From a virus (taxonomy: Duplodnaviria > Caudoviricetes), in IMG/VR virus record IMGVR_UViG_3300034137_000009, positions 1 through 62,985 of that record: 62,985 bases of DNA. One strand, given 5' to 3'. How positions within the stretch are numbered: the stretch's first letter is position 1; each line of letters starts with the position of its first letter. Positions 1,673 through 53,000 of the stretch are shown in pieces. The notes below the pieces were generated by a model that was not told where the DNA came from, made no database searches, and saw nothing but the letters and a program-made list of their open reading frames with translations. A program made the translations under genes and the position numbers.

Positions 1673-1807
1673 ATGACGTACGTCGTCCACATCTCCCCCG
1701 GTCACACGGTCACCACCAACTCCTTCACCGAGGCCCTCAAGGTCGTCGAGCGCTGGACGGCCCAGACCGGGCGCGTTCCGGTGATCCGAGGCACCCGCCT
1801 CCGCTAG
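1673..1807 (+). CDS. small hypothetical protein (44 aa)
   Basis: ATG 2 nt after upstream stop; codon bias. Confidence 0.6.
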   Translation: MTYVVHISPGHTVTTNSFTEALKVVERWTAQTGRVPVIRGTRLR

Positions 1808-1811
1808 CGTT

Positions 1812-1858
1812 CCACCCCCGGCCACCAGGTTGTATGCCTGGTGGCCTTGGGGTGCTGC
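1812..1858 (+). repeat. intergenic hairpin, family A copy 2
   Basis: GGCCACCAGG-TTGTATG-CCTGGTGGCC followed by TTGGGGTGCTGC. Confidence 0.7.
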
Positions 1859-1907
1859 ACCCACAAGCCACGACTTCACCCCCGATCCCCCTGGATCGGG
1901 AGAGCAG

Positions 1908-1920
1908 TGGTAGAATGGTC
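1908..1920 (+). promoter_or_regulatory. extended -10 promoter (TGnTAGAAT)
   Basis: TGGTAGAATGGTC; identical 13-mer at 6702-6714. Confidence 0.65.
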
Positions 1921-1967
1921 ACGTACCCAACCCTCACCCCCGACCCAGTCAACGGGAGGCACCACCA

Positions 1968-2513
1968 ATGGCACGACACCTCACGCACGACTCGCGCATC
2001 GCCAACGTCACCCTCACCCCCGAGTACTTCAACGCCGGGCTGCTGGCCTCGGACATGCTCTACGACGCGATGATGGCTCTCAACTCCGGCTCCCCCCGCA
2101 TGGCCGACGGCGCAGGCCCCGAGGCTCGTGCCGCCGCCGCCGCGTACGCGAAGGCCAACGGAGTCCGCGTCCGTCCCGGCACCCCCGGCCCCTTCTACTA
2201 CACCGAGAAGGCGCTGCTCGAGACCCTCAAGTTGCTCTACCCCACGCAGGCCAGGCAGGTTCTCGACCGCGCCATCGAGTGCGGCGAGCGCCCCCGCAGT
2301 GCCGCTGTCTACGTGCTCGAGGAGATCATCCGAGCCGACCGCGAGAGTGCCCTCCAGGACATGCTGGAGGCCCACGACGACGGTCGTCACGTCTCCGGTG
2401 ACCCCTTCTTCATCACCAACTGCCCCGCGTGCAGGCAGGGCACTACCTCCCCCCTGGTCCAGCTCTACCCGGAGCCCACCACGATGGACAGCACCTCTTA
2501 CACCCCCTGGTAG
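1968..2513 (+). CDS. hypothetical protein
   Basis: GGGAGG RBS, codon bias, C-terminal H..H..CxxC. Confidence 0.75.
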   Translation: MARHLTHDSRIANVTLTPEYFNAGLLASDMLYDAMMALNSGSPRMADGAGPEARAAAAAYAKANGVRVRPGTPGPFYYTEKALLETLKLLYPTQARQVLDRAIECGERPRSAAVYVLEEIIRADRESALQDMLEAHDDGRHVSGDPFFITNCPACRQGTTSPLVQLYPEPTTMDSTSYTPW

Positions 2514-2517
2514 ACGC

Positions 2518-2580
2518 TAGTCTGTCACACCTGCTACCCCCCAGGTCACGTACCTGGGGGCTCCAGGCGTAGTCAGCCTA
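2518..2580 (+). repeat. intergenic hairpin, family B (divergent copy)
   Basis: TAGTCTG...CAGCCTA base stem with T/C mismatch, internal loop, ACACCTG/CAGGCGT, top stem with CACGT loop. Confidence 0.6.
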
Positions 2581-2605
2581 CCTACCCTCACCCACGAGGA
2601 GTCAC

Positions 2606-3100
2606 GTGTCCGAGTCCATCTACCAGCGCCTCATGATCGTCGCGAGGCTGACCGGTACCCCCTACAAGCTCCGGCCTTACGAGCGCGTCCTCTCGATCGA
2701 GGTCACCCCCAAGAAGGTGGCGATCACATCGGAGCGCTTCACCATCGTCGAGTCCCCCCGGTCGGTCAAGCAGACGGCTCGGTTCATCAGCCTCACCGTC
2801 GTCTCCCCCAACAACACCGGTGGCTGGGTGTCCGACTTCGTCACGATGCCGGACCCGGACTTCACCCCCAAGATCATCGACACCACCATCACCTCCCCCC
2901 TCGAGTCCGAGTACAGGGACCGCCTCGCCTACGAGGGCATGTGCTACCGGCCCGGTCGAGGCACCGACTACGAGCGCGTCGGCGAGGAGTTGGTCCGAGC
3001 CTACAACAAGTTGGACGGTACCCCCCGCGAGCAGCGTGTCTTCCGCGACCGTGACGGCAACCTCGACACACCCGAGTCCCCCAGCTACTCCTACTCCTAA
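2606..3100 (+). CDS. hypothetical protein
   Basis: GAGGAG RBS, GTG start, codon bias. Confidence 0.75.
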   Translation: MSESIYQRLMIVARLTGTPYKLRPYERVLSIEVTPKKVAITSERFTIVESPRSVKQTARFISLTVVSPNNTGGWVSDFVTMPDPDFTPKIIDTTITSPLESEYRDRLAYEGMCYRPGRGTDYERVGEELVRAYNKLDGTPREQRVFRDRDGNLDTPESPSYSYS

Positions 3101-3116
3101 CCAGGAAGGCAACACA

Positions 3117-3287
3117 GTGAAGATCAAGCTCACCCCCCGAGGCACACTCGTCTCCCGTCTGGCCGGGGGCGTACTCGTCGTCGGCGTCGGCATCGCCCTC
3201 CCCCACATCAGCCCCTACACCCGCGCACTCGACGCGGCAGCCGTCGCACCCACCCAGTCCCCCGGCGCTACCGGAGCCACCAAGTGA
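3117..3287 (+). CDS. small membrane protein
   Basis: GGAAGG RBS, GTG start, one hydrophobic segment. Confidence 0.6.
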   Translation: MKIKLTPRGTLVSRLAGGVLVVGVGIALPHISPYTRALDAAAVAPTQSPGATGATK

Positions 3288-3655
3288 CCAACCCCACCGA
3301 GCCCACCATCGAGCTGCTCACCGAGGAGCTGTACCTGCTCCGCTACAAGATCACGCTGCCCTCGGGCGTCGTGCTCCTGGTCGACGACGAGACCAACACC
3401 AGCAACCTGACCCGCGCCACCCCCCAGGTCGACGTCTGGGTCAACTTCCCCGAGGGCGCTGGTACGGTCGAGGTCGGTGACACCCCCGCCGACGGCTTTG
3501 CTACCTGGACCTGCGACACCGCCCCCCGCAAGGAACTCTGCGCCTGCCTCGGCGTCGACGGTCGCACCCCCTGTGACCGCGAGGCGGTGCCCCCCGGCAT
3601 CCTCTGCCGCGACTGCCAGCACAACGGCTGCGGTCGCCTCGCCCCGATGCCCTAG
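3284..3655 (+). CDS. hypothetical protein with Cys-rich C-terminus
   Basis: GTGA coupling; CAC, CRDC and other Cys residues. Confidence 0.7.
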   Translation: MTNPTEPTIELLTEELYLLRYKITLPSGVVLLVDDETNTSNLTRATPQVDVWVNFPEGAGTVEVGDTPADGFATWTCDTAPRKELCACLGVDGRTPCDREAVPPGILCRDCQHNGCGRLAPMP

Positions 3656-3713
3656 GTCTGATCGTGCCCCCCAGCCACGTCCTGCACGTGGCTGGGTGGG
3701 GGCGTCCCAGCCC
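3655..3713 (+). repeat. intergenic hairpin, family B
   Basis: GGTCTG-ATC-GTGCCCC...GGGTGGGGGCGT-CC-CAGCCC. Confidence 0.85.
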
Positions 3714-3740
3714 ACCACTCCGAACCGGAAGGCACCACCC

Positions 3741-4103
3741 GTGACCATCGAGATCAAGGACTGCAGCATCCTCCCCAGCACCGTGTCTGGCCTGTGCGAC
3801 AACATGGACTGGCTCAACGTCGCCAGCATCCTCGGCATCGGCACCAGCCACAATCTCTGGGTTGACAACGCTGGTACCTACTTCTACCTCGTCTCCCCCG
3901 AGCACCAGGGCAGCCGCCAGGGCATCGAGACGTGGTCCCGCACCCCCCAGATCGGCAAGCAGATCGGCTGGAACCGCGAGATCTCCCCCGAGCCCACCGT
4001 CGAGGACCGCTCCCAGGTCATGGCTCTGGCCTACCAGTACGTCGCGCAGCAGGCCATCAACGAGGTGCGCGCCGAGTTCATGAGTTACATCACCCCCCAG
4101 TAG
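3741..4103 (+). CDS. hypothetical protein
   Basis: GGAAGG RBS, GTG start, codon bias. Confidence 0.75.
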   Translation: MTIEIKDCSILPSTVSGLCDNMDWLNVASILGIGTSHNLWVDNAGTYFYLVSPEHQGSRQGIETWSRTPQIGKQIGWNREISPEPTVEDRSQVMALAYQYVAQQAINEVRAEFMSYITPQ

Positions 4104-4160
4104 GTCTGAACGTGCCGCCTGCCCCCGTCCTGTACGGGGGCAGGTGGGGCGTACCAGACC
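4103..4160 (+). repeat. intergenic hairpin, family B
   Basis: GGTCTG-AAC-GTGCC...GGTGGGGCGT-AC-CAGACC. Confidence 0.85.
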
Positions 4161-4185
4161 ACCACCCGAGACACACGGAGGCACC

Positions 4186-4677
4186 ATGCTCAACATCAAG
4201 AAGGTCAACGCTCACGCGGTCAAGATCAACCGGCCCAGTCCTCCCCTTGGCTACACCGGCAACGTGTACCTCACCATCCCGGCCAGCAACATCGGCCTCA
4301 ACCAGCGGGCAGAGGACCCCGAGACGCCCTGGGACACGTACTTCGAGTTCTCCGTCTACGTGGACGGCAACATCTTCCACTACCAGGCGGCGTACAACGA
4401 GCCCGAGGGGTACTGGGAGCTGTCGATGTGGGACAGCTTCCGGCGCTGCGGATCGTGCTCGGCCAACGAGGTTCACACCATCCCCACCGACGCGCAGTTC
4501 TACCTCCGACTGGAGCGGATGAACAGCAATGGCATCTTCCTCGGCTCCCCCGGCCGGGTGTTCGAGGAGGTGTTCGCCAAGCACGGCACCTACAGCGTCT
4601 GCCCGAACGGCACAGGCACCCACCCCCTGACCCGGCCGGAGGCGAACAAGATCGCCATGCGCTACGGGCGGGTCTGA
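4186..4677 (+). CDS. hypothetical protein
   Basis: GGAGG RBS, codon bias. Confidence 0.75.
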   Translation: MLNIKKVNAHAVKINRPSPPLGYTGNVYLTIPASNIGLNQRAEDPETPWDTYFEFSVYVDGNIFHYQAAYNEPEGYWELSMWDSFRRCGSCSANEVHTIPTDAQFYLRLERMNSNGIFLGSPGRVFEEVFAKHGTYSVCPNGTGTHPLTRPEANKIAMRYGRV

Positions 4678-4811
4678 TGTCCAAGGTGATCTCCTCCTGG
4701 CCCACCACCCAGGCCGGCTGGTGCGCGCTCTACAAGCGCCTCGACCGGGAGTTCAAGACAACCACCAACTCCCCCCTGCACCACGACAACAGGTGCCCGC
4801 GTTGTAGGTAG
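4677..4811 (+). CDS. small hypothetical protein with HH..CxxC
   Basis: TGATG coupling; codon bias. Confidence 0.55.
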   Translation: MSKVISSWPTTQAGWCALYKRLDREFKTTTNSPLHHDNRCPRCR

Positions 4812-4896
4812 CCCAGCTACTACTTCGCCACTCTAGTAGCACTCGTGCGCCAGATACGGTAAACTAGCCGCATGGCCCACCCGTATCTACACGCCA

Positions 4897-4942
4897 GTCA
4901 CACCCAGTCACAGCCGGTAGTTCGGTTGTGGCTGGGTGTGAC
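4897..4942 (+). other. 20-bp intergenic hairpin
   Basis: GTCACACCCAGTCACAGCCG / CGGTTGTGGCTGGGTGTGAC with G-T pairs on the + strand. Confidence 0.7.
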
Positions 4943-5078
4943 GGCTACCCGTAGGGCGATCCCCCCGAAGTCTTGACCGTGCCCCGTGTCTATGGTTGGC
5001 TCAACCGTAGGCGCGGGGGACGGCCAGCAGGCTGTCCCACCACCCGACCCGACACAATGCCCCGGAGGCAAGTTCATC

Positions 5079-6137
5079 ATGGCCCGTCGTCCCCGCAACA
5101 CCGAGTCCACCGACACCACCACCACGGAGGCCACCGAGGCCACCACCACCCCCACCCCCACCGAGGAGAACACCGTGACCGCCACCACCGAGGCCCCCGT
5201 CGAGGCCGACGCCAGCACCGAGGCCGTCGAGGCCACCATCGAGGCGAACGACACCGAGACGCCCGCCGAGACGCCCGCCCCCGCCGAGGTCGACCTCAGC
5301 GCGTTCGAGGCGGCCGTCAAGGCCGCCGTCGAGGCCGGCGAGGAGGAGCGCGACCCCTCCACCGGCACCCTGGCCGAGGCGCTCGTCAAGCCGGTCCAGG
5401 CCGCCTACCGCGAGCTCGAGGGCATCAAGGGCAAGAACGCCGCCAAGAAGTTCCTCAACGAGGCGATGCGCGACGCGGTCAACAGCACCGACATCCAGCT
5501 GGCGCGCAGCTACATGCAGCTCAACGACGCCTGCACCGCCGCCCCCTCCGGCGGCGGAGCGGCCAAGGCCGAGCGCGTTCCGGCTGACCCCACCCAGGCG
5601 CACGTCGACCGCCTCGGCACGCTCTACCTCGCGGCCGAGCTCGTCACCGCCAACCGCCCCGAGAACGTCGACGAGGCGGCCGCGACCGAGAAGCTCGACG
5701 ACCTGCTCGAGTCGGCCCGCGAGCAGGCCGACGGCTACCTCGCCTGGGTGACCCGCACCCCCGTCGCCGAGGGCGAGGAGGACGCGGCCGAGCCCGAGGC
5801 CTCCGCCGTTGTCAAGGCCGCCGTCAAGCTGGCGCTCGGCAAGACCGCGAAGGTCGGCGGCACGACCCGCTCCGCTTCCACCGGCAGCGCGTCGACCGGC
5901 GACGGCACCCGCAAGAACATCGCCAAGCACATCGCGGAGGTGTTCGAGAACGTCGAGCCCGGCACGTTCCTGACCGTCGCCGAGATCCGCAAGGTGAGCA
6001 CGTCCGAGTACCCGGACAGCCCGCCGTCGGCCGGTGCGATCAGCAGCCGCCTGTTCCCCGACAGCGGCAACTGCACGATCGAGGGCATCACCCCCGGCCA
6101 GAACGCCGAGGGCAACCGCGGCGCCTCCAAGCCGTAG
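5079..6137 (+). CDS. acidic protein with T/E/A-rich N-terminus and C-terminal putative winged-helix domain
   Basis: GGAGG RBS, very strong codon bias; C-terminal PGTFLTVAEI...PPSAGAISSRLFP. Confidence 0.85.
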   Translation: MARRPRNTESTDTTTTEATEATTTPTPTEENTVTATTEAPVEADASTEAVEATIEANDTETPAETPAPAEVDLSAFEAAVKAAVEAGEEERDPSTGTLAEALVKPVQAAYRELEGIKGKNAAKKFLNEAMRDAVNSTDIQLARSYMQLNDACTAAPSGGGAAKAERVPADPTQAHVDRLGTLYLAAELVTANRPENVDEAAATEKLDDLLESAREQADGYLAWVTRTPVAEGEEDAAEPEASAVVKAAVKLALGKTAKVGGTTRSASTGSASTGDGTRKNIAKHIAEVFENVEPGTFLTVAEIRKVSTSEYPDSPPSAGAISSRLFPDSGNCTIEGITPGQNAEGNRGASKP

Positions 6138-6149
6138 CACCTCCAGGCC

Positions 6150-6181
6150 TCACCCCCGCAGCCAGCAGGCTGCGGGGGTGA
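6150..6181 (+). terminator. GC-rich hairpin, possible terminator (overlaps an alternative structure)
   Basis: TCACCCCCGCAGCC-AGCA-GGCTGCGGGGGTGA just after stop; no U-tract. Confidence 0.5.
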
Positions 6182-6299
6182 CCCTGTCTCGGCACACACG
6201 CGGTTCGTTGGGTCGCCACAAGCGATGTCCACTGGCTCTAGCGTGTGTGCCGGGTCAAGGTCACCCCCGACCTACCCCTACTCTCCCCTAGGAGAAGGC

Positions 6300-6689
6300 A
6301 TGTCCATGCTCATGTCCACTCGCGGCATCGTCGAGGCCTGGGCCACGCGGTCCAACGTCAGCCTCGACAAGCTCAACATCGACAAGGTGCGCGAGGACGC
6401 CTCCCCCGGCGACAGCGACTTCTACCTCCCGAACACCGTCGAGATCGAGATCATCTACGACGGCTCGGTCGACGAGGAGTTCTGCATCGACGAGCTGTAC
6501 GCGGTCAACGTCGTAGACGACTGCCTCGTCCCCGACCTCATCGCCCACGCGGCGAAGTCCGACTCCCCCGAGTGGACCGTCTACGTCAGGCGCGTCTCCG
6601 GCGAGCACGGCGACTACGCCGAGGCCGAGCACCTGTTCGAGCGAACGGGTGACGGCAGCGGTGTCACCGAGGCACTGGGTGACCGGTAG
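6300..6689 (+). CDS. acidic hypothetical protein
   Basis: AGGAGAAGG RBS, codon bias. Confidence 0.75.
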   Translation: MSMLMSTRGIVEAWATRSNVSLDKLNIDKVREDASPGDSDFYLPNTVEIEIIYDGSVDEEFCIDELYAVNVVDDCLVPDLIAHAAKSDSPEWTVYVRRVSGEHGDYAEAEHLFERTGDGSGVTEALGDR

Positions 6690-6701
6690 ACTTAAGTCGT
6701 A

Positions 6702-6714
6702 TGGTAGAATGGTC
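6702..6714 (+). promoter_or_regulatory. extended -10 promoter (TGnTAGAAT)
   Basis: TGGTAGAATGGTC, identical to 1908-1920. Confidence 0.65.
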
Positions 6715-6753
6715 CTACGGCACCCGCCTACCCTACTCTCCGATGGAGAAGGC

Positions 6754-6990
6754 ATGACCCACACCGCTACCCCCCAGTGCGTGTTCTGCTCCGCACCCTA
6801 CAGCCGCGCTCGTCTCGACGAGCTCGGCTACATGCACTGCCCCGCCGACCTGTGCGTCGCCAAGTGGCGCAAGCACAAGCTCGAGACTGAGTTCCGTCTC
6901 GACCTCGTTCCCAAGGTCGGGTTCGCCATCACTCACCGCACTGACCCCACCATGGTCACGGCAGGCCGTTCCTCCGGCCGTTCGGTCTGA
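6754..6990 (+). CDS. small C4 zinc-finger protein
   Basis: CVFC...HCPADLC; GGAGAAGG RBS. Confidence 0.7.
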   Translation: MTHTATPQCVFCSAPYSRARLDELGYMHCPADLCVAKWRKHKLETEFRLDLVPKVGFAITHRTDPTMVTAGRSSGRSV

Positions 6991-7043
6991 TTGTGCCCCT
7001 CGGTCACGTCTCGCTACGTGACCGGGTGGGGGCATCCCAGCCC
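6984..7043 (+). repeat. intergenic hairpin, family B
   Basis: GGTCTG-ATT-GTGCCCC...GGGTGGGGGCAT-CC-CAGCCC. Confidence 0.85.
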
Positions 7044-7068
7044 ACTCAAGTGACTGTCCTAGGAGGAC

Positions 7069-7314
7069 ATGATGAGCACACCGAAGATGAAGCGTCAGGC
7101 CGATGGCTCGCGTCACCGCGACCGTCGCCACCAGGAGGCGCTGGAGCGCAACCGGCTCCCGATGTGGGAGCGCGCCCTGCTCGATGCAACCGCCCCGGTC
7201 GGGCAGCTCGCCAAGCTCGACGACCGACTCGGTACCGACAGGGGTGCCGCCAAGGAGCGGGCACGACTCATGGCAATGCTGACCCCCGCTCAGCTGGCCG
7301 ACCGGAAGGTCTGA
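7069..7314 (+). CDS. hypothetical protein
   Basis: AGGAGG RBS; fits between two family B hairpins. Confidence 0.7.
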   Translation: MMSTPKMKRQADGSRHRDRRHQEALERNRLPMWERALLDATAPVGQLAKLDDRLGTDRGAAKERARLMAMLTPAQLADRKV

Positions 7315-7366
7315 ACATGCCCCCCAGCCACGGCTCGCCCGTGGCTGGGTGGGGGTGTACCAGCCC
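7308..7366 (+). repeat. intergenic hairpin, family B
   Basis: GGTCTG-AAC-ATGCCCC...GGGTGGGGGTGT-AC-CAGCCC. Confidence 0.85.
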
Positions 7367-7391
7367 ACTACTCCTCACGGAAGGCAACAGC

Positions 7392-8108
7392 ATGGCAAGC
7401 ATCATCTGCCGTAACGGTACCGACCACCAGCACACCTCGGTGCTGGACAGCAAGATCTGCTGGGGCATCGTTCGCCCGCCTGCCCCACCGGCCCCTGTCG
7501 TGCCCCTTACCTGGCGCGAGCGTCCTGCCACCGAGTCGCAGATCAAGTACATCAAGTCGCTGGGCGGTGACGAGGCGCGTGCCCGCCGCATGACGGGCCT
7601 GCAGGCATCCGACGAGATCGACCGACTCAAGAGGAACCCCCGACCCATGACTCCTGTTCAGCCCGAGCGCGACTCGCGTACCAAGATGATCGTCGGCCTC
7701 ATCGACTCCGTCCCCTCCGGCTACTTCGCCGTGCAGGAGGCCGACGGTCGACCGGTGACCTTCATGCGTATCAGCCGTCCGAAGCACGGCAACTTCAAGG
7801 ACGCGATCAAGGTTCAGACCCAGCACGGCCCCGAGTTCAAGGACGCCTGGGCCTACTGGCCCGCGACCGACAAGCTCATGCACATCAGGGGCCCGTGGGG
7901 CGACGTCTCCCCCCAGCTGCTCATGCTCATCGCCGACTGGCAGGGCTCGACCATGCGTTACAGCCGTCTCATCGGCAAGTGCGGCCGCTGCAACCTGGCG
8001 CTGACCGACGACCGCAGCCGCTACTACGGCATCGGTCCTGACTGCGAGCAGGTCTGGCCGTGGTTCATCGACGAGGTCGACGAGATCAAGGGCCCGTACC
8101 GCCGATGA
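7392..8108 (+). CDS. DUF6011-like zinc-finger protein
   Basis: C-terminal CGRCNLALTDDRSRYYGIGPDC; internal PATESQIKYIKSL motif. Confidence 0.7.
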   Translation: MASIICRNGTDHQHTSVLDSKICWGIVRPPAPPAPVVPLTWRERPATESQIKYIKSLGGDEARARRMTGLQASDEIDRLKRNPRPMTPVQPERDSRTKMIVGLIDSVPSGYFAVQEADGRPVTFMRISRPKHGNFKDAIKVQTQHGPEFKDAWAYWPATDKLMHIRGPWGDVSPQLLMLIADWQGSTMRYSRLIGKCGRCNLALTDDRSRYYGIGPDCEQVWPWFIDEVDEIKGPYRR

Positions 8109-8599
8109 GCGCCCCCCGGACAGCCGCTAAGGTCGTCGGGGGATTCGTCGCGCTCTGCATTGTAGGCGGCACCGTCCAGTCAGTGCTCGCCCACCCCGTC
8201 GAGTACCGTGATAGGATCGTCACGGTAACGGTCACTGCCCCCCCTCAGGTGATCACCAAGACGGTCGAGGTCCCGGTACCTACCCAGGTGCCGGGGCCTC
8301 GGCGCACGGTTCTGACACCCGCTGCGCTCCCCGAGTCATGCACCGTCCTGGCCGGGACTCTAGAGGACTTCGACCGACGTTCGCTCCTCGTATCTGAGGA
8401 CGGTGGTGAGCTCGAACGGATCGTCACCGATCTCGCTCGTGAGACCGTCGGTCACGACCTCGATCAGCTCAACGCGCTCACCGAGCGCGTTCGTACCCTC
8501 AAGGGTACGATGTCGGACAACCAACTCGCAATGCTCGAGGCCAACCGGGCCTTCACCGAGCACTACGCACTATGCCGGAAGGAGTTGAGCAAGAAGTGA
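8105..8599 (+). CDS. membrane-anchored coiled-coil protein
   Basis: N-terminal hydrophobic helix, T/V/P-rich stalk, helical C-terminus; ATGA coupling. Confidence 0.7.
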   Translation: MSAPRTAAKVVGGFVALCIVGGTVQSVLAHPVEYRDRIVTVTVTAPPQVITKTVEVPVPTQVPGPRRTVLTPAALPESCTVLAGTLEDFDRRSLLVSEDGGELERIVTDLARETVGHDLDQLNALTERVRTLKGTMSDNQLAMLEANRAFTEHYALCRKELSKK

Positions 8600-8810: not shown

Positions 8811-10364
8811 ATGACAGAAGCAGTGAAGTCCTGCCTCTCGTGCCCGTCCTACCTGACGGAACCCGCTGAGGTCGTCTCTAAGTTCAAGAAGTCGATCGGT
8901 GCCCCCGTCTGTGGGCGCTTCGGTCACGCGCTCGGCAAGCCCGGCCTGCCCCCCAAGCAGGAGGAGAAGCTGGCGATGCACTACGGCAAGAACTGCCCGG
9001 CCTACGGGGAGCCCCTGCCCCCCGTGCCGCAGGAGCACCGGTTCCAGGTCATGCTCCCCGACCCGGTCGTCGTCTCCCGCACCCCCGACCCCGACATGCA
9101 GGCGCTCGTCAAGACGTGTGCATCCTGCCGTAACTTCGTCCGCGACGACACTGTCGCTACCGAGCTCGGCTGGGCCGCGGGTCTGTGTGCGGCCAAGGGG
9201 AAGCTCATCCTCCCGTCTCGCCAAGTGTTCGAGGCGAAGGACTGCCCGTCGCGTGAGTTCGGCTCGATCCGACAGAACACGACCGGGATGCACCTGCTCC
9301 CCGAATACGAGGACGCGTTTCAGCTGAACGCTGATCCCATCAAGGCCTACTTTAAGGCTAAGGAGGCCGGTGGTATCCCGGACCCCAAGGACTACCCCTC
9401 AGACCGCCCCGTGGCCCCGGACGAGGAGGCATCGGGCATCCGCGCATGGCGGAGGGTAGTTGACCCCGAGGGGTCCGGCAACGAGGTGTTCTTGCCGATC
9501 TACATGTCCTCCCACTTCGACGCCGAGGACCATGCAAAGATTCCCCAGGCTGGTGACGACGAGCACCCCGAGCTCTACGTCGACCACTTCGGCGGCGTCT
9601 TTGCGGCTGCTGTGTCGTGGACCGAGCTCGATGAGACACCCGCCCTGTGGGGTGAGGCCGGTGTCGGTAAGACTGAGCTGTTCCGCCACCTCGCGTACCT
9701 CATGCAGCTTCCGTTCATCCGCATCTCGATCACCGGCAGCACCGAGCTTGACGACCTGGCCGGCAAGATGCACTATGACCCCTCCAAGGGTACGTACTTC
9801 CAGTACGGTCGTCTCCCCCGGTCGTGGGGCAAGCCGTGTGTGCTGTGCATCGACGAGCCGAATGTCGGTCCCCCCGACGTGTGGCAGTTCCTCCGGCCAC
9901 TGACAGACAACAGCAAGCAGCTCGTTCTCGACATGAACGAGGGTGAGACGATGAAGCGTCACACTGACTGCTACCTCGGCATGGCGATGAACCCCGCCTT
10001 CGATCCGAAGAACGTCGGCACGCAGCAGATCGGTGACGCAGACGCCCGTCGCCTGTTCCACGTGTGGGTTCCGCTGCCCCCCGAGGAGCTCGAGCGTGAG
10101 ATCATCGCCAGCCGCGTTGCACTAGACGGGTGGGAGATCGACAAGGGTCGTCTCGACGGAATCATGCAGATCAGCACCGAGCTGCGCGGTCTGTGCCGCG
10201 AGGGTACGCTCCCCATCACCTGGGGTGTGGCGCAGCAGATTAAGGTGGCTCGCGCCCTGCGTTGGTTCACCCCCACAGTCGCCTACCGGCGTGCCGTGGC
10301 CGACTACCTGGAGCCCGAGGCCCAGGACGCCCTCCTGGACGTGGTCCGTGCCAACTTCGCCTAA
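8811..10364 (+). CDS. MoxR/CobS-like AAA+ ATPase with two N-terminal Cys-rich repeats
   Basis: Walker A GEAGVGKT, Walker B LCIDE, sensor AMNP; N-terminal CLSC..C..C and CASC..C..C. Confidence 0.85.
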   Translation: MTEAVKSCLSCPSYLTEPAEVVSKFKKSIGAPVCGRFGHALGKPGLPPKQEEKLAMHYGKNCPAYGEPLPPVPQEHRFQVMLPDPVVVSRTPDPDMQALVKTCASCRNFVRDDTVATELGWAAGLCAAKGKLILPSRQVFEAKDCPSREFGSIRQNTTGMHLLPEYEDAFQLNADPIKAYFKAKEAGGIPDPKDYPSDRPVAPDEEASGIRAWRRVVDPEGSGNEVFLPIYMSSHFDAEDHAKIPQAGDDEHPELYVDHFGGVFAAAVSWTELDETPALWGEAGVGKTELFRHLAYLMQLPFIRISITGSTELDDLAGKMHYDPSKGTYFQYGRLPRSWGKPCVLCIDEPNVGPPDVWQFLRPLTDNSKQLVLDMNEGETMKRHTDCYLGMAMNPAFDPKNVGTQQIGDADARRLFHVWVPLPPEELEREIIASRVALDGWEIDKGRLDGIMQISTELRGLCREGTLPITWGVAQQIKVARALRWFTPTVAYRRAVADYLEPEAQDALLDVVRANFA

Positions 10365-16648: not shown

Positions 16649-17194
16649 ATGCAGACGTTCCTGCCTTACCCCGACTACACCGAGTCAGCGAAGGCGCTAG
16701 ATAGCCTGCGGCTCGGCAAGCAGCGCGTCGAAGTGCTGCAGATGCTCAACGTGCTCCACGAGGTGTCGCCCTCGAACGCCTGGTCCAACCACCCCGCCGT
16801 CCGCATGTGGCGCGGCTACGAGCTGCAGCTCGCCGAGTACGGCATGGTCGTCACCGACGAGTGGATCGCACGCGGCAACGCGGACACATGCATGGCGAAG
16901 CTGCAGCAGCACGTCGAGTGGGCCGAGTCCGGCGAGATGCTCAAGCCCGACTGGTTCGGCGACCCCGCGCTTCACGACTCCCACAAGTCCAACCTGCTTC
17001 GCAAGGCCAACCAGTACCTGCTCATCCACACCGACGAGCCTCACGATGAGCACTGGGCGGGCAAGCGCAAGTGTCCCGGCGACGGGTGTCATAAGCCGCA
17101 CAACAAGTGTGAGCCGCTCAGGTACGTCGAGTGGTACCACCCCCTCTTTCCCGGCGTCCCCGACGACCTTTCGTACATCTGGCCGGTCCCGTGA
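16649..17194 (+). CDS. pyrimidine-dimer DNA glycosylase/endonuclease V-like (MSMEG_6728-type) protein
   Basis: MQTFLPYPD...LD..RLGKQRVE, W.NHPAVRMWRGY, HDSHKSNLLRK, Y.WP. Confidence 0.85.
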   Translation: MQTFLPYPDYTESAKALDSLRLGKQRVEVLQMLNVLHEVSPSNAWSNHPAVRMWRGYELQLAEYGMVVTDEWIARGNADTCMAKLQQHVEWAESGEMLKPDWFGDPALHDSHKSNLLRKANQYLLIHTDEPHDEHWAGKRKCPGDGCHKPHNKCEPLRYVEWYHPLFPGVPDDLSYIWPVP

Positions 17195-19106: not shown

Positions 19107-19659
19107 AGGTGGCGCGTACAAGCCCGGCACCCGTGAGAAGTACACCGACTCGGGAAAGATGTCGGAGAACCGCTACGCCTGGGTTCGCACGATCCTAGGA
19201 CAGATGGTGCTCTACCGTCACGTTGAGGAGCCGCTCGCCAACGAGCCGACAGTTGGCGACACACTCCAGCTCATGATGCCCCGCCCCGGTGGCCGGGCTA
19301 TCAGCATGAACTTTTCCGCACTAACCCTGGCGGAGCTGGAAGCAATACGCGAGTTCTTCAACCTCCTATTCGATCTGGCTACCCCGGTAGTCAAGGCTAG
19401 AGACAAGGTGGCACAGGATGCGTTTGACGCAGGGGATGACTCTTACGCCCGAATCTATCGACAGGTTCCGCAGCTCATTATCCGCAAGGGGCCGGTCGGA
19501 CAACACCGTCAGGGCGTACACGACGGACCTGAGGATGCTGCTGCGGGAGACGAACATGACGGAGATCTCGATGGAGGACTTCGAGGACGTAGCGCTGGAG
19601 TGGCTCCAGTCGAAGAGGAAGACCCTGGCACCGAAGTCGACGGGTCGGAGGCTGACTAG
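19099..19659 (+). CDS. hypothetical protein (3' part overlaps the recombinase)
   Basis: Coupled start; acidic tail encoded in the -1 frame of the recombinase. Confidence 0.6.
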   Translation: MARGGAYKPGTREKYTDSGKMSENRYAWVRTILGQMVLYRHVEEPLANEPTVGDTLQLMMPRPGGRAISMNFSALTLAELEAIREFFNLLFDLATPVVKARDKVAQDAFDAGDDSYARIYRQVPQLIIRKGPVGQHRQGVHDGPEDAAAGDEHDGDLDGGLRGRSAGVAPVEEEDPGTEVDGSEAD

Positions 19660-20251
19660 CCTTAAGGCCTTCGTCAAGTGGGCCAAGTGGCCTAGCGACA
19701 TGCTCGATGAGTACTCCGCGCCCACCCCAGCCAAGGGCATCCCGCACCCCCTGCCCGAGGGCTTCGACGGAGTCACCCGCATGGTGAACGCGGCCAACAA
19801 CGAGCGGCAGCAGGCGCTCATCACCCTCTGCGGTATGCTCGGGTGTCGCGTCGCCGAGGCGCTCGCTGTTAAGGCTAGCGACTTCGACCTCAACAACATG
19901 ACACTGTCGATCCGCGGCAAGGGCGACAAGACGCGCATCGTACCTATCTCCCCCCGTGCATGGGAGATCCTCTCCCTGCCTGTCACCCGTGCCTATGTGG
20001 CCGGGGACGGAGAGGTCGTCGGACTGCGCGACCGCTTCGCCCGGCGCGTGATCACCGATCTCGGTATCCGCGCTGGACTGCAGCGTCGTGTGTCGAGTCA
20101 TGACCTGCGTGCCACGTTCGGCAGCGCGGTCTACAACAAGACACTCGACCTCCGTGTCACGCAGGAGTTGCTCGGTCACGCGTCGTCTGCTACGACCGAG
20201 CTCTACACCGGCATCAGCATGGACAAAATGCGAGGGGCGGTGGAGCTGTGA
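19436..20251 (+). CDS. tyrosine recombinase (XerC/D-like, no arm-binding domain)
   Basis: Catalytic R (GCRVAE), K (RGKGDK), HxxR (HDLR), H (LLGH), Y (TELY); alternative start 19418. Confidence 0.92.
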   Translation: MTLTPESIDRFRSSLSARGRSDNTVRAYTTDLRMLLRETNMTEISMEDFEDVALEWLQSKRKTLAPKSTGRRLTSLKAFVKWAKWPSDMLDEYSAPTPAKGIPHPLPEGFDGVTRMVNAANNERQQALITLCGMLGCRVAEALAVKASDFDLNNMTLSIRGKGDKTRIVPISPRAWEILSLPVTRAYVAGDGEVVGLRDRFARRVITDLGIRAGLQRRVSSHDLRATFGSAVYNKTLDLRVTQELLGHASSATTELYTGISMDKMRGAVEL

Positions 20252-29855: not shown

Positions 29856-30046
29856 CCGTCGACCCCGACACCGATCGACTCATGACGGTGAAGGAGGTGG
29901 CGGAGTTCTTCTCGGTCACGCAGTACACCGTCAGGCAGTGGATCAACAACGGCACCCTCAAAGGTGCTAAGGTCAATGACAAGTGGCGGGTGGCCCGATC
30001 CGAGGTCATCCGATACGCCAAGACACTCTACGAGGAGACAAAGTGA
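29852..30046 (+). CDS. excisionase-family HTH DNA-binding protein
   Basis: LMTVKEVAEFFSVTQYTVRQWINNGTLKGAKV..KWRV. Confidence 0.88.
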   Translation: MTVDPDTDRLMTVKEVAEFFSVTQYTVRQWINNGTLKGAKVNDKWRVARSEVIRYAKTLYEETK

Positions 30047-30621
30047 TCCTGACCCCCGACACCCGCATGATCTGGGTCGACATCGAAACGACCGGGCTCG
30101 ACCCTCTGAACGACACGATCCTCGAGGTGGGGTTCTGTGTAACCGACACCGAACTCAAGGTCGTGTCCGAGTTCGACGTGCTGATCTGGGATGCCGGATC
30201 GCAGACGTACGTCGACAAGGCCGACACGTTCGTCAAGAAGATGCACGGCCCCGATGGTACCGATCTGTTCCGCATCGCTAAGGAGGAGGGCATTCGTTGG
30301 GCCGACGCCGAGCGCGCTCTTCTCGGATGGATGGCCGAGGTCGGGGTTACGAAGGACGACCCCCTGTGTGGGTCCTCGGTCCACTTTGACCGTGGCTTCC
30401 TCAAGGACCAGCTCGACACCATTGAGTCACAGTTCAGCCACCGCAACATCGACAACAGCACCATCAAGGAGCTGTGCCGCAGGTACAACCCGAACGTCTA
30501 CGCGAGCGTCGACGAGTTCACACACCCCAAGAAGCTGCACCGTGCAATGCCCGATCTGGCGGACACGATCGAGGAGCACGGCTTCTACATGGACAACTTC
30601 CTCTGGGTGGCTGCCCGATGA
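30043..30621 (+). CDS. orn: oligoribonuclease-like DEDDh 3'-5' exonuclease
   Basis: MIWVDIETTGLDP, LCGSSVHFDRGFL, HRNIDNSTIKEL, HRAMPD. Confidence 0.85.
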   Translation: MILTPDTRMIWVDIETTGLDPLNDTILEVGFCVTDTELKVVSEFDVLIWDAGSQTYVDKADTFVKKMHGPDGTDLFRIAKEEGIRWADAERALLGWMAEVGVTKDDPLCGSSVHFDRGFLKDQLDTIESQFSHRNIDNSTIKELCRRYNPNVYASVDEFTHPKKLHRAMPDLADTIEEHGFYMDNFLWVAAR

Positions 30622-36498: not shown

Positions 36499-37281
36499 TT
36501 AGGCTCCCATCAGAAGAAAGGGGCTCATGTCGCCACCCCCGGTCGGGGCATCTGCCCACTCGACATCGTAGTTGGCGGCGGTGCGCTTGCGCGGAACCTG
36601 CCCGACCAGACCGCCAACGGGCAGCCCTGGTCCGGCCGCTCCGGTGTCACCCTTGACACCCTGAATGCCCTGCGCCCCGGTGTCACCCTTGACACCCTGG
36701 ATGCCCTGTGCGCCGGTGTCGCCCTTGAGTCCCTGGATACCCTGGGCGCCGGTGTCGCCCTTGTCGCCCTTGAGTCCCTGGATACCCTGCGCACCGGGAT
36801 CACCCTTCAGACCCTGGATACCCTGGGCACCCGTGTCGCCCTTGAGTCCCTGGATACCCTGCGCGCCGGGGTCACCCTTGTCGCCCTTGAGTCCCTGAGG
36901 TCCGATGTCACCCTGCGGTCCCTGGATGCCCTGTGCGCCGGTGTCGCCCTTGAGTCCCTGGATACCCTGAGCACCGGTGTCGCCCTTTAGTCCCTGGGCA
37001 CCGGTGTCACCCTTGACGCCCTGGATGCCCTGGATTCCCTGAGCGCCAGTGTCACCCCTAGGACCCTGGATGCCCTGGATTCCCTGTGAGCCGGGATCGC
37101 CCTTGTCACCCTTGATACCCTGCACGCCCTGGGGACCACGCGTTGTTAGTTCGATGGTCGTGAGGCTAGGCACTACCGGCTGAGCAAGGACCCTCGACGA
37201 GACGACCGCGATAACCTCGACACCGGGCTGGTCCGACGGGACGACTGAGACGGAGGTACTGAGAACCTCTACATCTGTCAT
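36499..37281 (-). CDS. collagen-like tail fibre protein
   Basis: Long Gly-X-Y tract; GLPVGG..GQV..K....YDVEW C-terminus. Confidence 0.85.
36620..37140 (-). repeat. collagen-coding tandem repeat
   Basis: Repeated [12 protein letters not shown]-coding 36-45 nt units. Confidence 0.85.
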
Positions 37282-50041: not shown

Positions 50042-53000
50042 CTAACCCGCCAGGTTCTCGAGGTTGCGGAGGAACGCCTCGGCATCGTCACCGGACTTGA
50101 TGTTCGGCAGAACCAGATCGCCGTTGATGTTGATGGTACGCGCTCCGTTGCTCTGGTTGGCCGGGACGGGTGCCTGCTGGGTCACCGACGCTACACGACC
50201 GGCCGCCGATGCGACGAGCCCCGTGGCGGCCCCTCCACCGCCCGTGGGGAGGTTCTCGATGCGGTTGACGGTGATGCCACGGTCGAGGGATTCCTTTACC
50301 CCGGCGGTGACGGTAGCGATAGCACGGAAGCCGTCGTCGAGACGCCCGAAGAACTGCGTAAGCGGGACGACGGCCTCGGGACCACGCTCACCGATGATGG
50401 CGTTGGTGGCGTTGTTCACGATGCCACCCTTCGCCATCTTCAGCGTAAGGCCGTACATGTCGGCGTACGCGAGCTGGCGCGGCGTCAGCTGCGAGCTCGA
50501 CATGTGCTGGATGAGCCAGTCATTCTCCGGCGTCTGCTTCGGCAGCGGGTGCGCAGCGATAGACTTCTCGAGCGCAATTGCAGCCGGGTTAACGAAGGCC
50601 GCCAGCGCGTCGGCACCGGGCGCCTTGCCGTTACCGAACGCGGTAGAGCCCGTAGCGGACTCGGTGGCGGGAACGTCCGGCGCACTGGTAGCGGCGGCCT
50701 GCGCCTGGGCGATAGCATCCGCATTAGCCTGGGCAGCAGCCGCAGCTGCACCGGCAGCGGCCGCAGCGTTGTTTGCAGCCTCAAGTGCCTGGTTCGCCGT
50801 CTCCTGTGCGCTAGCGACCTGGGTACGCAGCTCATCGAGGACACCACCGATAGACTCGGCAAGGGACGCGATAGCCTCGACCAGGGTCTGCGTGTCCTCA
50901 CGACGGTTCACGTCGTGGTCGGTCAGTAGATCGGTGAGGGAAGTCTGCGCCTCGACGAGGGCGCTAGCCTCCGTAGCCCAGTTCTCGACAACGGCCGCGT
51001 GGTTGGCGGTCAGCAGCTCGATGAGCGCGGTGTTAGCGTCCGTGTCGAATATAAGCCGTGCATCGTAGAGCTCCTGTGCCTTCGCGAGGCCCTCGGTGTG
51101 GAGCGTAGTAAGCTGCTCACCCAGGGTCGCCGTCTGTGCCGTGATGGCGTCGACGATACCGCTGTTACCGAGCGTGATGCCCCCGATGATCTGTCCGGCC
51201 GTGGTGCGCTCACCCTCGAGCCACATCGTCTCCCAGCGGGCCGCACGGAGCGCGCTGTCGAGGTTGAGCTGGTTGACCGCCGAGGCGGTAGACGTAAGCG
51301 CGTCCATGAGGGGGCCGAGGGGCATAACCGCCTCGGGACCGGCCTCACCGATCACCGCAGTCGTTGCACGACGGACGATACCACCCTCGGCGAGCATCGG
51401 CATCCTGGTCGGGACAACACCACCCTCGGCAAGGGCCGCGTGAACGTGGTTCCAGTGGTTGCCGGGCTCACCGGGACGACCCCAGGCGTAGCCGGGAACC
51501 TGGCGACCGTTCTTGATGTTGAAGGGGGCACCCGCGAGGATAACCTCCTTCAGACTACCGGCAATCGGCATGAGGGCGTTGAAGATGGCACGCAGGCCAG
51601 AGTTGCCGAATCCCTGGTTCTTGTGAACGGCGGGACCACCGTGGGGCTGGTAGTCAACAGCGCGACCGGTCTGGTGGTAGGAGCCACCGTCACCGGGACG
51701 CACGGTAGAGGTAATGACCTTGTCGAGGCCGGGGGCGTTCGCGTTGAGCCAGTTGTCGATACCCCTCCACCCGGAACCGGCCGGAGCGCCGTTACCAGGG
51801 GAGAGAGCGGGACCGGAAGAACCAGCGGCGGCAGCTGCCGCACGAGCCTCGGCCTCAGCCTTCTTGTCGTACTTGTCGGACTCGCCCTTGGCCCAGTTGT
51901 AGAAGGCGTTCTTGCGGTTGTTAGCGATCTCACGAACCGGACCGCGAAGATCGGTCGCGTCCATCGCCAGGTCGTAACCCTTGAGGAACGGCGCCAGCGC
52001 GGCCATGACCGCACCCTTCTGAATCGCGCTACCGACCGCCGCGACACCAGATGCAACCGCCCCGGCGGCGTCCTTAACGGCCCCCCCGACGCTACCGGCA
52101 GCGTCCCTGGCCTTGTCGAGGATGCCACCGTTCTCGTACTGCGGGACGTTGAGTCCGAGGTCCTTAGTCAGCTGGGCGTGCAGCTGGGTAGCCCGACCCC
52201 GGAAGCGCGGGTCGGTCGGCACAACGTACTCTGGGTGGCTAGAGCTTCCCTCACCGACGATGGCACGAGCGCCCTTGGTCTTGAAGCCAGCACCAACCGT
52301 GGTCTGCGGAACGTAACCACCGACGGCCAGCTGCGGAATCTGCGGGATGAGGTCGATCTTGAGGCCGATGCCGAGCTTGGACCCGACCGCGTTAAGGCCC
52401 TTGAACAGCGTGTTGATCGCGCTGGTGACCGCGTTAATACCACCGATGATCTTGTTAATACCGCCCTTGCCGTACTGATCCCACAGGGAACCAAGGCCGC
52501 TCATGAAGGCCTTCCAGGCGGGCTGAACAACCTTGTCCCAGAGGAACGTGAACGAGTTGCCAAGAATAGTAAGTGCGGTACCGATTCCGTCGAGAACCGG
52601 CTTACCGAGGGACCTCCACGCCGTGCCGAGGTAGCCCGTGAACCTGTCCCACAACGGCTTGATAACGAGAGCGTAAACATCCTCGAATGCCTGACCGAGA
52701 ACCTTGAGGGCAACACCGATACCGTCGAGGACCTCCTTGCCAAACTTCCATCCGGCCTTGAGTCCACCGGTGAAGGCGTTCCATGCCGGGCTGATCACCT
52801 TCGTCCAGATGAGCTCGAAACCCTCACCCATGATCTTGAGGGCACCCACGATGGCGATGAGCAAGACCAGGCCCACCGTCTCCCATACCCGCTTGACGGT
52901 GCCCCACCACAGGTTCCAGACCGGCTCGACAACCTTCTCCCAGACCCACTTGACGGCGGTGCCGAGGGCCTCGAACAGGGTGCCGATGGCGGAGAACAGC

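Follow-up and report, generated by a model that had tools for sequence, protein, structure and literature searches.

We analysed the whole of the IMG/VR virus record IMGVR_UViG_3300034137_000009, a linear contig of a tailed phage, an uncultured actinophage of high GC content (62,985 bp, ~81% complete; this entire stretch of DNA is called the window below), and found in its early region four closely similar hairpin elements of ~59 nt, all on the + strand, each of which begins on the stop codon of one gene and is followed by a short leader and the start codon of the next. With modest confidence, we regard these elements as promoter-less intergenic junction modules of early operons, in which recombination would play a secondary, evolutionary role; that they act as RNA punctuation of the early transcript, through processing, 3' protection and perhaps attenuation, we likewise consider somewhat probable. 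The four strong copies (B, C, D and E) and two divergent ones (A and F) are given here with their folding energies and, where available, their scores in a covariance model built from the four strong copies.

2516-2582, + strand: divergent copy A, a weak member (17.5 bits, E 0.034; -31.8 kcal/mol, z -2.6)
3655-3713, + strand: element B, a pattern match (-39.4 kcal/mol, z -3.8; 90.5 bits, by construction)
4103-4160, + strand: element C, a pattern match (-49.3 kcal/mol, z -6.0; included in the covariance model)
4966-5036, + strand: divergent copy F, a weak sixth copy (22.5 bits, E 0.0016)
6984-7043, + strand: element D, a pattern match (-35.0 kcal/mol); the stop of gene 6754-6990 is the TGA within its GGTCTGA
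7308-7366, + strand: element E, a pattern match (-41.2 kcal/mol); the stop of gene 7069-7314 is the TGA within its GGTCTGA

Sequence, fold and setting of the elements

A pattern written from the conserved ends, GGTCTGNNNNTGCCN{20,40}GGTGGGG, matches the window four times, always on the + strand, and has no match in 100 shuffles; a repeat search places three of the copies in a single 68-nt family (63-87% identical); and every strong copy forms a single extended hairpin, with folding energies from -35.0 to -49.3 kcal/mol and z between -3.7 and -6.0. Pattern, repeats and folds thus agree with an earlier reading made from the letters of this DNA (hereafter the sequence-only reading), which had proposed four close copies at these positions, and the consensus that it gave suits all four in sequence and in alignment. 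It had also counted a fifth copy at 2518-2580; this one, copy A, we find to be weak. In the covariance model copy F outscores it, and the remaining window yields noise.

The four copies share a structure of 24 pairs, in which 94.7% of 95 cells are paired (38-49% in controls with slid partners) and 8 of the 24 pairs are altered on both sides in a compensatory manner, a number that none of 500 shuffles equalled. Sequence conservation is concentrated at the base, where 23 of 32 columns of the four-copy alignment are invariant, vs. 11 of 28 at the tip; the earlier observation that the tips vary yet stay paired is borne out by the compensatory pairs and by the proportion of paired cells. A 1x2 internal loop recurs at a fixed position, as do a G/G mismatch and a U bulge. 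Element C has a T-A pair where the others have T/C, and a G-U pair replaces its U bulge, so that the T/C mismatch is indeed kept in four of the five copies first listed (B, D, E and the fold of A). With its 24 pairs and internal loop the structure has the form expected of a T7-type RNase III processing site, a hairpin of at least ~20 bp of double-stranded RNA, usually with an internal loop. On the sense strand the consensus structure holds six G-U cells and no A-C cell. A search of Rfam returned two sub-threshold chance hits, neither of them at the elements.

The setting of the hairpins is as regular as their fold. The first G of element B is the final base of the TAG stop of gene 3284-3655, with an in-frame TGA at 3659-3661, and element C overlaps the TAG stop of gene 3741-4103; in both, the stop reads TAG GTC TGA, and since the TGA is itself the stop in D and E, the TGA of the element is in frame in all four. 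All four strong copies therefore start on the upstream stop codon, as had been claimed. Of the divergent copies, A sits 3 nt past the TAG stop of gene 1968-2513, and F lies in a 270-nt gap upstream of the conserved gene 5079-6137 and shows no stop-codon anchoring. Downstream, the distance from hairpin end to next start codon is 27, 25, 25 and 25 nt (B, C, D and E), and this interval is a C/A-rich spacer with a Shine-Dalgarno (SD) sequence, in agreement with the spacer and ribosome-binding site of the sequence-only reading, which was also right about the missing U-tract: the 10 nt after the stems contain 0-2 T, fewer than the U-tract of an intrinsic terminator calls for, and a terminator scan made no call at the elements. 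A TANNNT -10 box is missing from all four intergenic units, and a promoter scan was likewise blank there. Elements E and B are 87% identical over 68 nt; the similarity starts exactly at AGGTCTGA and continues through the hairpin into the leader and the SD sequence, with unrelated coding flanks on either side, so that the repeated unit is the whole intergenic junction. The features around the elements are as follows.

1908-1920, + strand: promoter-like box TGGTAGAATGGTC (13 nt, extended -10 type), upstream of the putative operon with A, B and C
3714-3740, + strand: C/A-rich spacer with the SD sequence GGAAGG, preceding the GTG start at 3741
3741-4103, + strand: ORFan gene between elements B and C
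4161-4185, 7044-7068 and 7367-7391, + strand: equivalent C/A-rich spacers, recognised by sequence
6702-6714, + strand: exact second copy of TGGTAGAATGGTC, upstream of the putative operon with D and E
7069-7314, + strand: ORFan gene between elements D and E

The box TGGTAGAATGGTC has two exact matches in the window, both in intergenic gaps, and is a putative promoter on the strength of its consensus; with its two copies at 1908 and 6702, elements B, C, D and E fall inside putative operons. The genes flanked by elements (3284-3655, 3741-4103, 4186-4677, 6754-6990 and 7069-7314) have no Pfam or PHROG family and no tblastn match in 22 related loci, and their neighbours 5079-6137, 7392-8108 and the ATPase gene are conserved throughout these loci.

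Some further features lie close to the elements. Two strong hairpins flank gene 5079-6137, one upstream at 4893-4949 (~21-pair stem) and one just past its stop at 6151-6180 (14-bp stem); their sequence is unlike that of the elements and they have no T-tract. The motif GGTCTGA also stands at 1664-1670 and 4671-4677, where it closes the open reading frames (ORFs) 1275-1670 and 4186-4677, with no hairpin after it and with the next ORF beginning on or just past the TGA. Within the first 8 kb the + strand has six copies of GGTCTGA, and each of them closes a gene (18 occurrences in the window, 12.6 expected); those that lack a hairpin may be remnants of elements, or chance.

Related phages, gene flux and genome context

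The nearest named phages, found by tblastn with the ATPase, are Gordonia, Rhodococcus and Tsukamurella phages of the GTE7, Woes and Monty groups, with ATPase identity below 60% across 117 records; uncultured relatives reach up to 76% in a protein database. No close relative was found by megablast against phages or by locus searches with the AAA-ATPase or the 4186-4677 protein. Our comparison set consisted of 20 related viral contigs (ATPase 39-66% identical) with the upstream 10 kb.

Within the collections searched, and judged by sequence, the exact family is confined to this contig. With the strict pattern we obtained no match in IMG/VR, one match in 241 million metagenome records (low-GC, no hairpin, read as coding) and one in 185,579 species genomes, in a Firestonebacteria metagenome-assembled genome (match not inspected); the many copies expected of host repeats of the repetitive extragenic palindromic (REP) or miniature inverted-repeat transposable element (MITE) kind were thus not found. 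A loose pattern hits 86 stretches of IMG/VR, with a single match in each of the 84 listed, and we take these as chance. A covariance-model scan of related phages, which the sequence-only reading had proposed, came back empty: none of the 20 related loci gave a significant match, the best E being 0.12, and neither did the complete GTE7 and Chelms genomes.

The architecture is shared more widely than the sequence. L094, the closest contig fetched, carries in its early region four + strand copies of a family of its own (CTGAYC...GGCRATCAG, no match in 100 shuffles), at least three of which have a TGA inside the basal stem or next to it, and the contigs L095 and L096 hold additional stop-anchored hairpins. 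The Gordonia phages Woes, GTE7 and Chelms have elements with a common 3' box (GGGAGTC..C..GRCTC) that adjoin a stop codon; above a lower stem of 4-6 bp they open into an asymmetric internal loop and continue through a short middle stem to an upper stem that is long and variable. Short motifs are common to the window family and the elements of its relatives, the 5' arm having GTRCC and the 3' arm GTGGGRG, and common descent of these families is likely. Canonical terminators of hairpin and T-run exist in the relatives too, for example after Chelms gp98.

Other repeated motifs were seen in the same early regions. Just before many early start codons stands a conserved leader, CACCGRAAGGGTTGCA, in GTE7 (L091 2350-5330), Chelms (L092) and the Woes cluster (L117, L118 and L119); the gaps of GTE7 additionally repeat the motif ACTAGTAC, and L095 has a small repeated hairpin motif of its own, GGCGCCCCGTAGGCGCCC, in several early gaps (4610-4730 and 9580-9780).

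In the Woes cluster, gene gain, loss and replacement have their junctions inside elements. A 1.7-kb Woes segment with two elements matches 25 Woes-cluster phages, of which 19 are collinear and six differ. Lahirium is without exactly Woes gene 90 plus one element, and its two Woes matches overlap by 52 nt, which fall within the leader and the 3' portion of the element. In Bianmat a pair of direct elements encloses two genes, 92-91, where Lahirium has one element and neither gene, the overlap of the Lahirium/Bianmat matches being 106 nt, or the whole element; in Bianmat, moreover, the Woes segment from the end of element 1 to the middle of element 2 is replaced. Four further phages show a Bianmat-like match pattern (pattern only, not inspected). 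Five aligned Woes-cluster elements have an identical base and leader and three unrelated upper stems. The 52-106 nt of shared sequence at the junctions point to homologous recombination between repeats, within the conserved base segments. For the window itself, a search of sequencing runs gave one biocrust-metagenome DNA run, and no RNA run, that contains the phage record; the DNA run is possibly the contig's own source, and no variant joints at the elements were seen in it over 1800-8300, where a single contig was found throughout.

The rest of the genome is arranged in rightward genes up to ~42 kb and leftward tail genes past that point. The rightward genes include an AAA_5 ATPase, an SNF2 helicase, RusA, a DNA methylase, a PD-(D/E)XK nuclease and an XerC/D-like recombinase; Pfam scans of 40 phage ORFs revealed no RNase III or other evident RNA-processing protein, and Pfam scans of phage ORFs no transposase near the elements. 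Also amid the rightward genes are a Pyr_excise pyrimidine-dimer DNA glycosylase (16649-17194), which fits a sun-exposed biocrust habitat, and an RNase_T-family exonuclease (29983-30621). The 12-671 protein is similar, in its C-terminal part, to the C-terminus of the family to which conserved gene 5079-6137 belongs (phrog_6708), and this part matches the positions of 5079-6137 homologues in L096, L097, L099 and L101, and the phage seems to carry two paralogues, 12-671 and 5079-6137. Dense direct repeats at 36601-37158 (18 overlapping copies, spacings in multiples of 9 nt) suggest a repetitive coding stretch, possibly collagen-like. Periodic repeats of 66 and 132 nt occur at 56606-57044, within the - strand gene 50042-58765 (2907 aa), a very long tail gene and presumably the tape measure.

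Weighing the readings

As RNA punctuation, the module would run from stop codon through long hairpin and C/A-rich leader with SD sequence to start codon, and its working form would be an RNA hairpin in the polycistronic early transcript. The hairpin would mark a cut site. The enzyme might be RNase III, acting on the two turns of stem and their fixed internal loops, or one of the RNase E type, acting on the leader, which is C-rich and single-stranded; after the cut, the upstream cistron would keep a protective 3' hairpin and the downstream cistron would receive a standard leader. Partial attenuation at the hairpin is also possible, and the conserved base might be the recognition surface for a host or phage protein. 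As a by-product, the identical base segments of 14-20 nt would offer homology for the deletion, insertion and exchange of intervening genes. The sequence-only reading had favoured processing or protein-binding sites of the T7 type, and the anatomy speaks for it (hairpins of ~24 bp, fixed loops, a place within putative operons without T-tract or -10 box); cleavage at the elements is what we infer from this anatomy.

Several observations weigh against this reading. The antisense strand folds comparably (-39.8/-44.8/-33.3/-41.3 kcal/mol, vs. -39.4/-49.3/-35.0/-41.2 kcal/mol for sense; B/C/D/E), and G-U counts in the minimum-energy folds of both strands, which are noisy, show no strand preference; a function on the sense strand thus rests on context and on the six G-U cells, and of the strand bias that had been put forward the sense G-U cells stand while the bias as a whole is weak. 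In a wider context, element B adopts an alternative minimum-energy fold. The covariance model has no significant match in relatives, so that homology is argued from architecture and short motifs, and a joint MAFFT alignment of the window family with the relatives' elements was structurally incoherent, for which reason we built no broader model and leave common descent at likely. Gene flux was seen at the relatives' own element families, none of which is that of this phage. Finally, Dakiti differs from Chelms by a 528-nt insertion at a stop codon outside any such element, so indels at gene boundaries also arise without elements; the idea that gene content varies exactly at the elements holds for Woes-cluster relatives, whose elements have the same architecture.

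The same data bear on other explanations. That the hairpins are factor-independent terminators or attenuators, working without a U-tract and giving nested early transcripts, is possible though unlikely: GC-rich hairpins directly past stop codons in an actinophage early region are what one would look for, and terminators without poly-U tails are reportedly known from actinophage phiC31's early region (a 1995 paper by Ingham and colleagues, taken here by its title), whose hairpins would resemble the elements in being GC-rich, without a T-tract and placed after early genes. A plain terminator, however, would need neither a conserved base sequence nor fixed internal loops, the relatives possess canonical terminators elsewhere, and the downstream genes, with their short leader and no -10 box, depend on read-through. 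According to the accessible text of PMC3993855, moreover, mycobacterial RNA polymerase requires a U-tract for intrinsic termination, and gene-end structures may have another part to play, in stabilising RNA or in setting the ends that processing leaves. We consider it improbable that the elements are palindromes of the MITE or REP kind, selfish or neutral, which multiply through copying and recombination, are tolerated by selection in gaps and have no role in expression. The likeness of B and E with its sharp borders at AGGTCTGA, the private family of each lineage and the recombination in the Woes cluster agree with such an origin, but all copies have one orientation, the four strong ones all sit at a stop codon at a near-constant distance from the next start, tips change in compensation over a fixed base, and the strict pattern is found once each in species genomes and metagenomes, with no transposase nearby. 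An action on translation, in which the hairpins slow termination, block re-initiation or uncouple neighbouring cistrons, is in our view quite improbable. REP elements near stop codons of Escherichia coli affect translation in such a manner, the stop codon lies in the 5' basal arm of all four strong copies with the element TGA in frame, and in the relatives the stop coincides with the hairpin base or is no more than a few nt away from it; genome compaction alone, however, would press a 60-nt hairpin onto the stop codon, because the hairpin cannot overlap the ribosome-binding site. When the first 15-21 nt, the bases covered by the ribosome, were held single-stranded, the four copies showed no consistent alternative fold or masking of the SD sequence, and the idea of a translation-coupled switch was rejected on this result.

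The remaining explanation, also raised by the sequence-only reading, takes the elements as attC-like single-stranded DNA sites at which the phage's tyrosine recombinase would capture and excise gene cassettes, and we judge it highly improbable. The enzyme in question is:

19418-20251, + strand: tyrosine recombinase on a rightward gene (277 aa; SAM-like N-terminal and catalytic domains, no arm-binding domain)

It is arm-less as described, and this phage shares it with L094 and L096, the two closer relatives tested. Like attC sites, the elements are imperfect palindromes: the outer boxes are conserved, some bases are unpaired and the centre varies, and they stand at the 3' end of promoter-less cassettes, here ORFans. 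Against this, the best NCBIfam models of the recombinase are XerC, XerA and XerD, all below their own cut-offs, and on the integron-integrase subfamily TIGR02249 it scores 66.8 bits vs. a cut-off of 265, which places it outside that subfamily; it lies 12 kb from the last element, and neither an integrase nor an attI site adjoins the array. The R'/R'' core consensus of attC contains GTT, and the element ends, GGTCTGA and CCAGMCC, lack this core. A search of five related genomes found a tyrosine recombinase in the two contigs named above and in none of the complete Woes, GTE7 and Chelms genomes (a control matched 14 of 14 genomes), although these three phages bear elements of the same architecture and the Woes cluster still shows gene flux. 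The 52-106-nt junction overlaps again point to homologous rather than site-specific exchange, and the proposed mechanism finds no support in these comparisons.

Genes of unknown function, anti-defence genes among them, have their main reservoir in the early regions of phages, and the acquisition and correct expression of such genes are only partly understood. If the junction modules work as we propose, a promoter-less stop-anchored unit would explain both acquisition and expression in a large group of actinophages, those of Gordonia, Rhodococcus and Tsukamurella together with their relatives from soil; such a unit would extend the idea of promoter early stem-loops (PeSLs) past T4-like phages and that of T7 processing sites past enterobacteria. 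A bolder version, which we regard as rather unlikely, is that GTE7-like actinophages share an old, lineage-wide system of junction elements, stop-anchored hairpins whose base would be conserved and whose tips could be exchanged freely, as a recombinase-free counterpart of the integron that combines an RNA signal making captured ORFs expressible in the early operon with a DNA site for the capture, excision and swapping of ORFan cassettes between co-infecting phages; exchange might then be helped by hairpin extrusion or template switching in place of plain homology. The cultured phages of the Woes cluster allow direct testing of junction modules, and a compact intercistronic part of this kind could be of use in operon design in high-GC actinobacteria. 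We found no description of such hairpins in the Gordonia phage and actinophage literature searched, although the supplementary repeat tables of one Gordonia phage paper (PMC4524720) may list hairpins of GMA7 and GTE7; the accessible text of that paper merely counts palindromes and suggests that they are terminators.

Comparison with known systems

The REP elements of enterobacteria resemble the elements in being intergenic imperfect palindromes within operons (putative ones here), and they can protect upstream mRNA, as the elements may; the accessible text of PMC3993855 draws a comparison with REP elements for mycobacterial gene-end structures. They differ in being repeats of host genomes with hundreds of copies, whereas the element pattern has one uninspected match among species genomes and no host-genome family.

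For RNA punctuation the closest parallel is phage T7, whose early transcript is processed by RNase III at the sites R0.3, R0.5, R1, R1.1 and R1.3. The T7 early gaps 0.4/0.5, 0.7/1 and 1.2/1.3 fold into hairpins that begin on the stop codon and are followed by a short leader, and two of the three folded gaps start on the tandem stops UGA UAG; we take these hairpins to be the RNase III sites, the fetched T7 record carrying no such annotation. Both systems consist of repeated intercistronic hairpins of about two turns, with internal loops, within an early unit, polycistronic in T7 and putatively so here; in both, the hairpin starts on the upstream stop and is followed by a short SD leader, and the copies agree in a part of their sequence, although it is the base that is conserved here (the tip varies) and the upper stem in T7. 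The elements differ from the T7 sites in their high-GC actinobacterial host and in having no sequence similarity to them and no Rfam match, and cleavage is in the present case something we infer. In Mycobacterium smegmatis, a cultured actinobacterium of no established kinship to the phage's host, cleaved 5' ends have C at +1 more than 90% of the time and are especially frequent between genes that are transcribed together, according to the accessible text of PMC6448022, which is consistent with a cut in the C/A-rich leader that would leave the hairpin as a 3' cap.

For gene exchange the relevant system is that of the PeSLs of T4-type phages (Arbiol et al., 2010, PMC2839356), which the accessible text of that paper describes as repeated intergenic cassettes. 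So far as that text goes, PeSLs are built around a strong sigma-70 promoter and their stems act as terminators, whereas the elements lie inside putative operons without a -10 box and are read here in another way. The two nevertheless have in common a repeated intergenic unit that runs from the upstream stop to the next SD sequence and start codon and includes a stem-loop, a place beside ORFans in plastic regions, and the gain and loss of genes through recombination between copies (in our case seen at the Woes-cluster elements of the same architecture), and by this comparison the PeSL is the nearest described concept for the recombination role of the elements.

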